Program-made: the position numbers
Source of the DNA: a virus
Taxonomy: Duplodnaviria; Heunggongvirae; Uroviricota; Caudoviricetes
Direction: 5' to 3' (one strand)
DNA length: 64,000 nt
IMG/VR virus record: IMGVR_UViG_2713897211_000002
Span: 130,411-194,410 of that record
Part shown: positions 1-6,000 of the stretch, piece after piece
Layout: every line of letters starts with the position of its first letter
Position numbering within the stretch: the stretch's first letter is position 1

Positions 1-3000
1 AACACTTTTCACACAATTCTATTTCATTACAACAACTTAAAAACTTGATGTTATAAATAGTATCATAGTTTAATATAAAATCATCATCTTCATCACTAAA
101 TCGAGTTATATTCTCGCAATTGTCACAACAGTCATTTATACCAGTAACTTTTCTTTTACTTATTTTTATCATTTGTACACTTCTTCTTCGCTATAATTTG
201 AAATTACATACTTTCTTTGAATTGTGACTATTCCTCATCCTCTTCTATTCCAAAATCAAAATATTCTAATACAAGTTCTGTTAAAGCTTTTTCTGCCTCT
301 TCTCTAGTTTCATATTCATCTAAATACACAATAGTTCCATTTGCATTTAAACTACAATTTACAGCTCTTAAAACCTTTCTTTTACTCATACAATAGCCTC
401 CTGATCTTTGAATTATGACTTAACCTTAGATTCTAAATCCTTAATTCTTTGCTTTGAATATTCGTTATATGTTATTAAGGCTTGAACATCTCTTGGTTGG
501 TATCTAACTCCATTACACCATAAATGCCCGCTATGTTTATAAGGATTTCCAGAGGTATAATCACCTATTTCTTTTTGTTTAAATTTTGAAGTGATTATAT
601 TTATTAAACTTCTCAAATTTATCGCCCCTTTATTTCGTAAAAATTTCAAATCATGTCATATTAAAGATATTTATTGTTTTTTGGTTGTGAATTCTATTTT
701 TGTAACAAAATCTACGCCAAAAGGTTTTTTACACTTTTCACAATCCATTGAAAACTCACCTTCCATATCTCCTGTGTCAATATAATTTTGAAAATCTTCA
801 TGTTTATAATCACAATAAGGGCATTTAATTCCAAATTCCATATTAAATTAAACCTTCCTTTCGATGTATTTATGCTTTTCAGTCAAATTTTTTAATTAAC
901 ATTCTATATAAGCAGTCTGTTAAGAATACTAAGCTCATCATGCTTTTGTTATTTATTAAATCTAATCTGTCTCCATGAAGAATATGTCTTGTTACAAATG
1001 TAGGACTTTTTGATGTAGATTTGTATATATAACATGTACCTTTTTCATTAAAAAATGTTGAATATAATTTTTCTAATTCTTTACTTTCTTTATATTTAAA
1101 ACAATTTTCTGATAATACTTTGGTAATATTGTTAATAATCTTCCATTCGCCTATAGGTTTGTTTGTATTGAATCCTGATTCTCTTATTTTATATTCCATT
1201 AAAGTAAATAAGTTGAGAGTAGTGGAATATATCTTGTTTTGCATAAAATTTGTTTTTATTTCTTTTATAAAATCACAAATACAATCTGTATGTTCTTCAT
1301 CTATCCAATTATCTATAGCTTTAATATAATATTCTTTAATATCTGAACTATTCACAACATTATTAATGTCAATTTTATTTACATATTCCTCATGGAATTC
1401 TATAATTTGATCTTCCATCATATCATCTAAAAAATAAAATATTGGAGGAAACACTCCTTCTGTTATAAATTTATCTGAAAATATAGGATTCATTTCTAAG
1501 AACATAGTAGCAAAATATATATTTTTCTTTTTCTTATTGCTCAATTCTTTGATAATTGGTTTTAGTTCTTTAAAAAAGAAAGCATTAATTATATATATTT
1601 CCTTGTATATAGGTAGAATAGCTTCAGAAATAATATTTTTGAAATTTACAAGTTGGCTAAATTTTTCTCCCAAATCTTTACTGATTTTTTGTAATTCGTA
1701 TTGTGATTTTGAAAAATCACTGACATTAGTTTCCTTATTCATAAAAATAACTACCTCCTAGGATATAATATCATAAATAAAGAACAATTTTAATGAGGTT
1801 AATTTATCTTTATTTTATCAAATTATTTTATGTTTGTCAAATAAATAATTATTCTCTTATTTCCATTTTAACTATTTTATCTTTCTTCTGTCTAGTATTA
1901 TATATGAAGTTACCTTTATTACCTCTTTTCATAGTTAAATAATCTTTCCACGACTTTTCTGTATTGTTATCTACATCATCAAGCATATACTGAATCTCAC
2001 ACGACTAAAGTCGCGTGGTTCTTATTTATATAAACTTCCATTATACTCTCATTTATAGGATTTACATTATCTCTAATAACCTATAAACTACAACATATAA
2101 TGACTCATCTAATTACAATAAGACTTTTACTATCAAATATCCCAACGGTTACATTAGCGATAGTATAAGGCTCGATTCTAAACCTTTGTATTATATTTTC
2201 TATAGTTTAATTCTCTTTATATTCCCATACTACTTATTAACCTAACACCATTTCTCTTTAATTCTTTTAATCTATCTATCTCTTTATCATGTAACATTTT
2301 AAAGTTATCATAAGTTTTAAAACATAATTCTCTATCTATTTTATCTAATTTCTTGCCTGTAACATTCATAATTAAAAATGCACTATACATATCTCTTTGT
2401 ATTTCTATGTCATTATTCCATCTGTCTTTTAATTCTTTTTTATTATATTCATCTGTGAAATGATTATATTGTGAAGCTTTTACCTTTTTAGTATTAATTT
2501 CGTACAATTTTTCACCGTTATATTTTAATTTATTATTTAATATAGTTAAAAACATACTCGGTGCTTTATTTGCTAAACTTTTGCCAAAACGTTTCTTTTT
2601 ATTATACTTACCTTTTTTATTTTTAGTAGTTTTCTTAGCACGTTTCTGTAATCCTTGGTAATTCATATCTTCAACATAGAATTTATCACCTAAAGTTAAT
2701 AACCAATTAATCATTTTATAATGGTCTTGCCTTCTAATTTCTGTTTGCTTTCTATATAATTCTTTTCTTCTTGCTTTAGCTTTCAAATATTTGTTACTAT
2801 AAATCCATTTATCTTTACTACTTCTTTTAATAGTACCATCTGAATTGTACTTATTAGGATTCATACTTCTTCTTGACCTATCCATATATCTCTGTAATAG
2901 TTTAATTTTTCTATCTATATTGTTTATATTAGGTGCTAACTCTAATAACTCAACATCATATTTACTTGATATTGCAATTGTTCTAGTACCTATATCTATT

Positions 3001-6000
3001 CCAACATTACCTTGCCCTATACTACCTTTGATTTCATCTGTTCGTTTATTTACTTTTTGTGGTGGAATTCCTTCTAAAATTAATTGAACATAATATTTAG
3101 TTTTGCCTTTAATTTCTTTTCTTAAAATTCTGCAATATTTAACTCTATCTTGGATGGCTTTTTGTGCATAAGCATCATTATTTTTAATCATTATAGACAT
3201 TTTCAATCCATTCCATTTAATGTATCCATCTCTATACGTTATGCCACTAGCATTCCATTTACCTTCAATAGAATGTATTTCATTATATTTAATAAAATTA
3301 ACTCTATTAGCTTCCCCATAAATTAATTTTTCTAAAGATTTCCACGCCCTACTTGATAATGCTTGTGCAGTTTTATTATCTATATTTTTGTTAAAAGGTT
3401 TATACATTGGAGTCATATCGTTGATAAGTGAATATTCATTGATTTTAAATTCACCTAATAATGTATTTAATTCTCTATATTTTTCTTTTCTTTGTTTTTC
3501 TATAATTTTCAATTTTTTATCATCATTACAATTAAAATACTGTTTATTAATTTCTGCTAATTCTTTTCTTAATTTTCTATAGCGTTTTCTTTCACTTAAA
3601 GCATTAAATCTTTTTAAGCCTATACCTAGTATAGAATTATATAATTTTCTACATATTTCAAAACGCTTTCCCATTATAGATTCTTCTCTTTTATTGGTTT
3701 TTAATTGCAATGTTAATACATAACTCGGAGTTTTTGATTTGCCCATGAATATTCACCTACCTTTCTTATTTTATTTTCTGACTTTTAATATAATTTCTTA
3801 TTTGTTCTTCTGTATTCTCACTAACCGTTGCTATAAAATATGATGGATTCCATAAATGTCCTCCCCTCAATGTATTTTTTAATATGCAAATATGTTATTT
3901 TCTTAGATATTCTTATCACCATCCTATTTTTGTTTTTTATTATTAATGAATAATAACTTTTATTACATCATCATTATTTACTCTAGTATTTATTAAGAAT
4001 TTACCTTCAATATTTCTATTTCCGTTCCCTTTTAAATAATCATATATACTTCTTTGTTCATTATTTTTATTTGTTGGTGCAATATCGTCTAAAAAGTAAT
4101 CTTTTCTTTTACCTTTGATAGTTTCTAATGTAAAATTTAAATCAGGTTTTTTGATAACTGTAGAAAATATTGATTTGTTTTTCTTTTTTTCAGTAGATAA
4201 CTTCATTCCTACAACACCTTGACTATTTTTACTTCCAACAGAATTAACATTTTTAGTATTGATAATAACTCCTTTACCTTCTTGTGATATAATTAATACA
4301 TCTTCATCGTCGTTAATGTAGTCTATAGATAATAATCGATTTTTAGTATTATAACAATTTTGAAGTTTTTTATTAACGCTTATAAATGATTCGATATCTA
4401 TTTTAGCAATTCTGCCATTATCATAAACATAACACATGTATCCTTTTGTTTTAGATTTATCTTCTATGGAGATTATTTTAATAACTTGTTCATCTTGCTC
4501 TAATTTTAATGTATTGTGTAGGTACTCTCCTAACGTTTTTGAAGGAGAACTACATATTTCTAATTCGTAACAAGGTATTTTATATCTATTAGCTTTATCC
4601 GTAAATAAGTATAAAATCGATTTATTTGTAGAAGATATTTCTTCTATAATACTGTCATTATCTTTTAACTTATGTTGTTCAAATGGAATAGACTTGTTAA
4701 GTTTTTTAATATACCCATCATGTGTATATATGATTTTGCAATTATATTCTTCTATTAAATCCTCTGTTGTTATATTAGTTAGATTATCTTCTATTATTTG
4801 AGTCCTTCTAGGTTGTGAAAACTGTTTTTTAACATCTTCTAAATCTTTAATAATAATTTTGTTAATTTCTTCTTTGTTATCAACAATACCTTGTAAATAT
4901 TTTAGTTTATCTTCTTTTTCAGTAATATTTTTTAATTGTTTTGCAATATAATTTTTATTTATATTAATTAATTTGATATTAAGTATATAATTTGCTTGAA
5001 TTTCATCTATATTAAATTCCTTTTGTAGTTCTTTATTAGAATCTTCAGAAAACCTAATAATACTAATAGCTTTATCTATATCAAGTAATATGCTTTTTAA
5101 TCCTTTTAAAATATGTAATTCTTTCGTTAAAGTTTCTATTTCATGATTAATTCCATTAACCACACATTGTTGTCTAAATTTACACCATTCTTTTATAGTA
5201 TCTTGTACACCTATAACCTTAGGTGTTTTGTCAACTAAAACATTCATATTTGCATTAAATTTATTTTCTAATTGAGTTAATAAAAAAAGCTTATTTATCA
5301 ATTTTTTCATATTCGTATTTTTTTTACAATCAATTTCAATACATAAACCATTAATACCAGTTAAATTTAATACATTATTAATTTCTTTTAATTTACCTTC
5401 TTTACACAAGTTAATTATTTTATCAATTATAGATTCCACTGTAACTTTTGTATCGTATGGTATTTCCGTTATTAATATTGTATTATCTTTGATTTCATAC
5501 TTTGCCCTTAATGTAATATCTCCACAGCCTGTTTTATTTATTTTTTGTATTTTTGTATCATTTTTTAGTATGTATCCTCCTGTAGCAAAATCGGGATATA
5601 ATATAGGAATAGGCTCATTCCTTAAATAATATATGGTTGCGTTACATACTTCTTCTAAGTTAAAGGAAGGTGAATTATTAGCCATGCCAACTGCCATACC
5701 ATTACTAGCCATACACAAAATTAAAGGAAAACGAGTAGGAATAAATTTAGGCATTTTTTGAGTACCATCATAATTATTTATCATTTCAACCATATTTTTA
5801 TCTATTCCTTGCATACAATCTTTTCCTAATTTACTTAATTTACATTCTGTATATCTACTGGCTGCAAATTGCATATCACTAGAACAAAAACTTCCCCAAT
5901 TCCCTTGACCTTCTATTAAATTATAAATATGCCTATCATTTTGTACCATATTTACTATAGTTTCATAACAATCTCCATGAGGAGAATATACCATTACCTT

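Follow-up and report, generated by a model that had tools for sequence, protein, structure and literature searches.

A probable immobilised and partly decayed IS605-group insertion with a zinc-finger-less TnpB and a structured omega-RNA in a topoisomerase gene of a Clostridium botulinum phage-plasmid

In the ISDra2/IS608-type elements of the IS200/IS605 family of insertion sequences (IS), tnpA is followed by tnpB, which encodes a protein of the RuvC/TnpB fold, subterminal hairpins are present at both ends, and a transposon-associated motif (TAM) lies 5' of the left end. The omega-RNA, which contains a pseudoknot, extends to the right end, and its guide lies beyond the element. In IS605 copies, the guide is the DNA beside the insertion, and hence matches the copy's own empty site. 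Here, we analyse a TnpB-encoding locus in 64 kb of DNA from a virus of the class Caudoviricetes (IMG/VR record IMGVR_UViG_2713897211_000002, positions 130,411 to 194,410; hereafter the window), together with its relatives. All traits listed above recur in this group, the gene order and the two hairpins being seen in the relatives of the window copy; the subgroup of the window shares the TTGAT TAM of ISDra2, and another subgroup has the TTAC of IS608. On the other hand, proteins of the window family lack the C4 zinc finger and are longer (480–530 aa vs. ∼400 aa), the omega-RNA scaffold of ∼197 nt lies entirely downstream of the stop codon, the Pfam profiles OrfB_IS605 and TNB are silent and the NCBIfam profile scores below its cutoff. 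The window copy also lacks the left end and most of tnpA.

Closer counterparts are the OrfA/OrfB genes of phage c-st (CST007/CST008), phiCD211, D-1873, and Geobacillus virus E3 (gp156/gp155). Their TnpB homologs, annotated as OrfB with an IS200-type OrfA or its fragments upstream, belong to the same protein family (52–59% identity over the full length), and the elements share with the window copy the finger-less motif, the conserved 3' RNA, and large phages or phage-plasmids as carriers. These copies keep tnpA, whole or fragmented, and the DNA upstream of it, whereas the window copy is cut at tnpA and lies within a repaired topoisomerase gene. That large branches of TnpB, some of them virus-borne, have lost the C4 finger has been reported before; in one such branch, RIIIr-4, histidine also replaces the RuvC-III aspartate (PMC10691335).

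The window comes from a ∼205-kb contig of C. botulinum (NKSD01000009.1, assembly GCA_016989605.1), whose sibling replicons are circular, non-mobilisable plasmids of 197–215 kb; one of these, NZ_CP022401.1, carries no IS element at this place. The exact 509-aa TnpB protein is known from one assembly and two sequencing runs, each time in an identical context, and a tRNA scan of the window found none. We conclude that the locus is very probably a copy of an IS200/IS605-family element (IS605 group) that has been immobilised and has partly decayed, with a TnpB from a large finger-less clade of Bacillota. Its parts are as follows.

3766..3884, minus strand: 3' remnant of an IS200-type tnpA, ending …LRGGHLWNPSYFIATVSENTEEQIRNYIKSQKIK* (tblastn, translation, and alignment to complete elements)
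2217..3746, minus strand: tnpB, encoding a 509-aa RuvC nuclease of the zinc-finger-less TnpB family as predicted from the open reading frame (ORF), profile, fold, and conservation
1990..2186, minus strand: omega-RNA scaffold and transposon right end, 197 nt (family conservation and covariation)
1998..2017, minus strand: right-end subterminal hairpin CACGCGAC-TTTA-GTCGTGTG, unique in the window and covarying as helix 9
1990..1994, minus strand: TTCAG end motif of the transposon, the conserved end of the aligned relatives

The first-pass annotation correctly placed the 509-aa ORF at 2217–3746 on the minus strand, and described it as a solo gene with no tnpA nearby. The latter did not hold. With three TnpA proteins as tblastn queries, the best window match of each was directly upstream of tnpB, where a reading frame ends with …LRGGHLWNPSYFIATVSENTEEQIRNYIKSQKIK*, the TnpA C-terminus. 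About 40–55 codons of tnpA survive; they are 76% identical at the DNA level to the 3' end of tnpA in an Alkaliphilus element (L011; L-numbers here are labels of the compared loci or genomes) and align with the complete elements L093 and L094. A degenerate continuation with three stop codons may extend to ∼3936. A remnant reaching 4072 was rejected as an over-extension of lenient blastn, and nothing past ∼3936 is trusted. The left-end hairpin was searched for through the 64-kb window, and none was found. As only the right-end hairpin is present, the window copy is a truncated derivative rather than a complete element, and the tnpA remnant together with a normal right-end junction makes it a decayed insertion.

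The family to which the copy belongs is mobile. In most of 80 genome loci, from Clostridium, Alkaliphilus, Tissierella, Anoxybacillus, and others, a full Y1 tnpA is found 0–45 bp upstream of tnpB (TnpA of L011 matches Pfam Y1_Tnp with E 3e-43). The window holds no second copy of the TnpB protein, the omega-RNA, or the guide, so that the search for further copies was negative there; some genomes of relatives carry several identical copies of the element. The ends are defined by five identical copies in one metagenome-assembled genome (MAG): the TTAC TAM precedes a left end that carries a hairpin, and …GAGTTTCAG (TTTCAG) closes the right end. The nearest relatives of the window TnpB (88 and 86% identical; L093 and L094) are encoded by complete tnpA–tnpB elements. 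The left junction of L094 reads …TTTGAT|left end, and TTGAT adjoins the left end in seven of eight cases within the window subgroup. Relatives have subterminal hairpins at both ends, and the left ends of the complete ones comprise only ∼115–150 nt ahead of tnpA. The proposal that the nuclease was domesticated rather than part of a selfish IS is not supported, given an abundant, mobile, tnpA-bearing family with complete relatives at 86–88% identity and a tnpA remnant in the window itself.

Related Clostridium genomes contain solo tnpB elements in which the left end is intact and TTGAT is present, which could suggest that the window copy is a still-mobile non-autonomous element of the IS1341-like, tnpB-only kind, with TnpA supplied in trans. 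We consider this highly improbable, as the 64 kb contain no left-end hairpin, and the upstream junction consists of the topoisomerase stop codon and then a tnpA fragment instead of a TAM and a left end. Moreover, published excision assays need both element ends (PMC10055086); given that requirement and the missing left end, the window element cannot transpose.

Decay of tnpA recurs in the family. Among three copies in the Alkaliphilus MAG (L011, L012, L013), two share one internal tnpA deletion and the third is complete. Several Clostridium copies (among L010 and L015–L018) have kept the left end with TTGAT, and their tnpA is a short C-terminal remnant or is missing. Another C. botulinum phage-plasmid (L008) encodes a homolog of 73% identity, likewise without tnpA; a gene for a TubZ-like tubulin is found nearby, and a small, divergently oriented ribbon-helix-helix gene (L008, 5750–5905) lies upstream of the tnpB homolog. 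Arc-like ribbon-helix-helix regulators of IS605 elements have recently been described. A literature search for the name "ISCbt1" yielded nothing useful.

The element had been placed between genes, next to the phage topoisomerase genes. It sits inside the ancestral gene for topoisomerase IIA subunit A (hereafter topoisomerase A), parts of which flank it on both sides.

1849..1989, minus strand: severed 3' end of the ancestral topoisomerase A gene, 46 codons and the stop codon (alignment to NZ_CP022401.1)
3943..4594, minus strand: replacement C-terminal domain of topoisomerase A, residues ∼531–747, foreign to the sibling plasmids
1974..1989, minus strand: predicted guide portion of the omega-RNA (TATATGCTTGATGATG), positioned by IS605 biology

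In the alignment to NZ_CP022401.1, window positions 644–1998 match at 97% and positions 4595–8000 at 91.5%. In the sibling, the former block continues into the last 50 codons of the topoisomerase A gene, which is unbroken across the exact right-end boundary. The window junction reads …GAGATTCAG|TATATGCTTGATGATG…, and the empty sites are GAGATAGAT|TATATGC… in L090 and L104 and GAAATTGAC|TACATGC… in the L091 type. The transposon boundary is between positions 1990 and 1989, and homology to the empty site begins at 1989. A 45-aa "gene" of the public assembly at 1849–1986 on the minus strand (MLDDVDNNTEKSWKDYLTMKR…) is the tail of topoisomerase A, ∼93% identical to the end of the sibling protein, and this annotation should be corrected to a topoisomerase fragment.

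At the other side of the element, the window topoisomerase A (3943–6186, minus strand) has its own stop codon at 3943–3945, just before the tnpA remnant. The protein is a chimera with respect to the sibling: identity is 89% in residues 1–480 and 36% in residues 481–747, and blastn homology to L090 ends at 4595. The C-terminal domain is 50% identical to that of topoisomerase A from a C. tetani plasmid. The simplest reading of these alignments is an insertion into topoisomerase A followed by a heterologous C-terminal patch. A complete element comprising the left end, tnpA, tnpB, and the omega-RNA/right end would have entered through TnpA-mediated "peel-and-paste", on the 3' side of a TTGAT-like motif, at about codon 690 of the topoisomerase A gene of a C. 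botulinum phage-plasmid, in the same orientation, severing the last 46 codons. A later recombination event may then have exchanged the region between the middle of the topoisomerase gene and a point two thirds into tnpA, the left end included. What came in would be a topoisomerase C-terminal domain of heterologous origin that carried its own stop codon, with one homologous crossover near the border of the N- and C-terminal domains and one illegitimate crossover inside tnpA. This would have restored a full-length topoisomerase and stranded the truncated tnpA, tnpB, and the omega-RNA/right end. If so, the locus is a clean case of an IS605 insertion in an essential phage gene rescued by a foreign domain swap.

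The topoisomerase A genes of these phage-plasmids (the window, L090, L091, and L092) are mosaic at the border of the N- and C-terminal domains, at residue ∼480. L091 combines a divergent N-terminal domain (34%) with a C-terminal domain of the sibling type; the mosaicism is thus independent of the IS.

A further explanation would be an IStron, in which an IS605 element is joined to a group I intron and thus spliced from the interrupted topoisomerase mRNA. Clostridial IStrons of the IS605 family likewise use TTGAT and lie inside genes (bioRxiv 10.1101/2023.11.20.567912), but here this explanation has next to no probability: the window contains no group I intron or other Rfam family, the left ends of complete relatives, at the length given above, are only ∼115–150 nt, and the host gene has been mended at the level of DNA.

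The 3' flank of tnpB, 1850–2216, had been suggested to be an omega-RNA or a right end. This is correct for 2186–1990, a conserved structured omega-RNA coinciding with the transposon right end; the part 1989–1849 is the coding fragment of topoisomerase A. The end of the RNA had been predicted near 1900–2000, in agreement with the scaffold end at 1990. Across the family, DNA conservation starts ∼20–30 nt past the tnpB stop codon and stops at one point in every locus, at (T/A/G)TCAG, with unrelated DNA beyond; all 69 aligned relatives end in this way, one of them as TCGG. In two Bacillaceae loci (L035 and L049), there are ∼220 extra nucleotides between the tnpB stop codon and the start of the conserved RNA.

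The structure of the RNA is supported by covariation in a MAFFT alignment of 69 distinct sequences. RNAalifold yielded 30 pairs, 26 of them with compensatory changes, including pairing of the loop of the first hairpin with the 3' terminus. The layout comprises helices P1–P6, a variable central hairpin, a terminal hairpin, and one pseudoknot. In the resulting structure with nine helices and 45 pairs, the pseudoknot included, 90.7% of the alignment cells pair, compared with 69.4% in shuffled controls (none of 500 reached the observed value) and 37–44% when partners were slid; changes on both sides were seen in 37 of the 45 pairs (619 cells). The near-constant G-U pairs at several positions indicate an RNA on the tnpB strand. 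The pseudoknot is formed by GAAUC in the six-base loop of P1 and the 3' GAUUC, and covaries (alignment columns 10–14 with 239–244). Its 3' strand overlaps TTCAG, so that the end motif is constrained by its functions in DNA and in RNA together. Similarly, the hairpin at 1998–2017 serves twice, being the one recognised by TnpA in DNA and forming the final stem of the omega-RNA.

The window copy pairs at 43 of the 45 positions, and both misses are alignment offsets. The nhmmer search of the window with the omega-RNA profile gave a single match (E 3.8e-38), and the minimum-energy fold of the flank shows the same helices, with a z-score of −4.0. Of the GC-rich structure ascribed to the flank, the structure stands and the GC-richness does not: the flank is AT-rich overall, and its only GC-rich part is the terminal hairpin 2017–1998. 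Comparison with known omega-RNA families was fruitless, as an Rfam search with gathering thresholds for the whole window, and with E≤10 for 1500–4300, revealed neither an omega-RNA nor an IS605-orfB motif nor an intron.

The protein itself is TnpB-like, as had been proposed from its three RuvC motifs. It matches NCBIfam NF040570 (guided_TnpB, "RNA-guided endonuclease TnpB family") in residues 12–460 with E 2.3e-16 and phrog_506 "transposase" with E 7.9e-54; PADLOC gave partial matches to Cas12u4 and Cas12f, and searches of PDB sequences with phmmer and with the family profile produced no match. The AlphaFold2 model, built from an alignment of 44 relatives, has a mean predicted local distance difference test score (pLDDT) of 83.4. 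In Foldseek, its top matches were ISFba1 TnpB (8iaz, 2.6e-11) and ISDra2 TnpB (8h1j, 6.5e-11; 8exa, 9.5e-10), followed by Cas12f and Fanzor2, and the model thus places the window protein in the TnpB/Cas12f fold with a split RuvC.

The motifs are GIDIG (D251), VEDMN (E359), and QRDMYSAF (D452). The three acidic residues are invariant across the 44 relatives, and the D/E/D triad is retained in 127 of 134 distant cluster representatives. According to DSSP, in the model D251 ends beta-1, E359 ends beta-4, and D452 starts the helix after a region of small beta-hairpins, the canonical layout of a split RuvC. In a comparison by hhalign with canonical TnpB, gp153 of virus E3, the RuvC-III motif falls opposite HRD in a weak match (probability 0.14); the zinc-finger and RuvC-III regions pair as expected, without statistical support. 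A nuclease-dead regulator, the alternative that hinged on whether the motifs fall on the catalytic D/E/D positions, is disfavored by this conservation, and we rejected a TldR-like regulator for the same reason and because the family is mobile and tnpA-associated.

The least confident part of the model is a lysine-rich loop, residues 367–393 (DNA ∼2568–2648), with pLDDT <50. It carries the invariant KKKRFGKS, which is among the most conserved sequences of the protein, and may be a lid contacting the nucleic acid.

Expression of the locus would depend on its neighbor. Topoisomerase A and tnpB are co-oriented, and terminator prediction gave none in the stretch that separates them; in a promoter scan, counts were equal to the shuffled expectation. 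Read-through from the topoisomerase operon is the probable source of tnpB transcripts, and their 3' untranslated region would be processed to an omega-RNA of ∼210 nt with a ∼16-nt guide, the DNA just past the right end. The absence of a promoter above chance may also be read differently, as a sign of an inert relic, that is, a recent dead insertion, unexpressed or inactive, which has not yet gathered disabling mutations. The left end and tnpA have already been destroyed, tnpA decay recurs in the family, and the copy is known from very few genomes, all of which would fit. Still, we regard this explanation as possible but rather unlikely. The 1530-nt ORF is unbroken, with all catalytic residues present, tnpB has the orientation of the upstream operon and is not separated from it by a predicted terminator, and the omega-RNA retains 43 of 45 pairs next to a tnpA remnant containing stop codons. 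Given an intact omega-RNA beside a stop-ridden tnpA remnant, decay has been uneven.

The severed tail of topoisomerase A adjoins the right end, and so the guide matches the uninterrupted sibling alleles: at 16 of 16 positions in L090 and L104, and at 15 of 16 in the L091 type. The true guide may have a length of 16–20 nt. The replacement domain of the window has seven mismatches to the 16-nt guide at the equivalent site by direct reading. A TnpB–omega-RNA complex of the immobilised IS would cut TTGAT-flanked uninterrupted topoisomerase alleles, which would be the usual selfish "homing" of IS605 TnpB and no new function. As every IS605 guide matches its empty site, the match is no evidence of selection, nor by itself of domestication, but the standard "homing" logic of IS605 (PMC10055086; PMC13565253). 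A by-product effect on sibling phage-plasmids is possible.

A stronger claim can be made from the same match: the nuclease could be an exapted weapon or homing drive, kept for its ability to cleave the uninterrupted topoisomerase A allele in sibling phage-plasmids that reside in or infect the same cell. Siblings would be either excluded or converted by homologous repair, with co-conversion of the foreign C-terminal domain. Besides the guide match and the divergence of the functional window topoisomerase at the guide site, such a role would agree with the ORF and the RNA remaining intact despite lost mobility, and with both sibling lineages bearing different synonymous changes within the TAM position; "non-restorative transposon homing" against co-infecting phages and plasmids has already been discussed (PMC13565253). 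If true, it would explain why the nuclease and the RNA are intact after the loss of the transposase and the left end, and repair from an IS-bearing genome would spread the element along with the linked, guide-immune foreign C-terminal domain. This would make an RNA-guided analogue of SegF-type intronless homing among C. botulinum phage-plasmids. The likeness to SegF-type and non-restorative transposon homing consists in a nuclease gene beside a conserved essential gene, a sibling allele as the target, and a foreign linked gene segment. Unlike in SegF-type homing, recognition would be by a guide RNA, and the comparison serves as an analogy for such a drive only.

However, we find this role improbable. 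The match of the guide to an empty site is common to every IS605 copy, and differences in the TAM are what chance would produce where local divergence is ∼16%. The siblings of today have no TTGAT TAM, and TnpB has been reported to be highly TAM-sensitive (PMC10055086). The exact protein is seen in one assembly and two sequencing runs only, in one context, and nothing points to a non-mobile clade that is conserved and inherited vertically.

Matches to the guide region were also seen elsewhere. In two IMG/VR contigs (L096 and L101), 23 nt identical to it (TATATGCTTGATGATGTAGATAA) follow TTGAT in an unrelated 300-aa viral ORF (DYMLDDVD), and the same 20-mer of the guide region occurs in a portal-like gene and other genes. 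We rejected them as targets, as they are probably chance matches in AT-rich phage DNA.

Several points weigh against the account of an immobilised IS605-group copy with a working nuclease. First, the order of events is one that we infer; the right-end junction, the empty sibling site, the tnpA remnant, the missing left end, the conserved triad, and the covarying omega-RNA are direct observations. Second, present-day empty sites read TAGAT or TTGAC, not TTGAT, and since the left junction is gone, the ancestral TAM can no longer be read. Each of these sites is one synonymous change from ATTGAT, and so they are consistent with insertion beside TTGAT without proving it. Third, a donor of the domain was searched for in phages, where there was none, and in plasmids, where the best candidate was the C. 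tetani plasmid with 70.7% DNA identity. Fourth, the NF040570 score of the window TnpB is 60.1 bits, under the curated cutoff of 100 bits, and Pfam PF01385 (OrfB_IS605) and PF07282 (TNB) give no match to it; because of this, nuclease activity in the absence of a zinc finger, for the window copy and its clade, is predicted from conservation and fold only. Finally, the ratio of nonsynonymous to synonymous substitution rates (dN/dS) of tnpB relative to its nearest relatives, 0.11–0.13, equals the value between two complete (autonomous) copies and cannot tell selection before immobilisation from selection after it. With these points considered, the locus is an ordinary decayed IS, an immobilised member of a known family, with an under-described finger-less TnpB clade and a well-supported omega-RNA.

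The zinc finger of this TnpB had been described as lost. Its absence is real: the segment from RuvC-II to RuvC-III contains no CxxC, and SQYNHF and RW stand in place of the four cysteines. The loss cannot be ascribed to the window copy, as CxxC is found in none of 120 close relatives, in which the stretch KASQYNHFTDEYNKKELKDRWN..DIxIQRDxYSAF is nearly invariant. A profile search of 1.84 billion cluster representatives placed 1,122 clusters at 50% identity, from Bacillota, in the family (E≤1e-30). We aligned 134 of the best among them, with mutual identity ≤50%. S425, Q426, and H429 are each retained in 123–124 of these 134 distant representatives, and CxxC in the finger region occurs in one, off the finger position. 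Since neither the 120 close nor the 134 distant relatives have CxxC at the finger position, the finger is absent family-wide, missing from a large family as judged from these alignments rather than lost in one copy. Short beta-hairpins are still predicted in this region of the model (pLDDT ∼73–88), suggesting a cysteine-free, aromatic-packed version of the TNB domain in place of the finger.

The window TnpB resembles the RIIIr-4 branch in having no C4 finger between RuvC-II and RuvC-III and in being carried by viruses and plasmids. Assignment to RIIIr-4 was rejected, as D452 is retained within QRD and the absence of the finger is the sole shared protein trait.

Hence, a very large TnpB clade seems to work, or at least to persist under purifying selection, without a zinc finger. 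It is undetected by Pfam and its RNA is absent from Rfam; it is linked to tnpA, has a covarying omega-RNA of ∼197 nt, and uses TTGAT or TTAC as the TAM. These data suffice to test the clade as RNA-guided nucleases and to ask what the role of the finger is. In Geobacillus virus E3 (L003), both kinds of TnpB are encoded ∼1.1 kb apart: the zinc-finger-less gp155 of the window family (3001–4458) and the canonical gp153 (5608–6783), which matches both OrfB_IS605 and TNB of Pfam.

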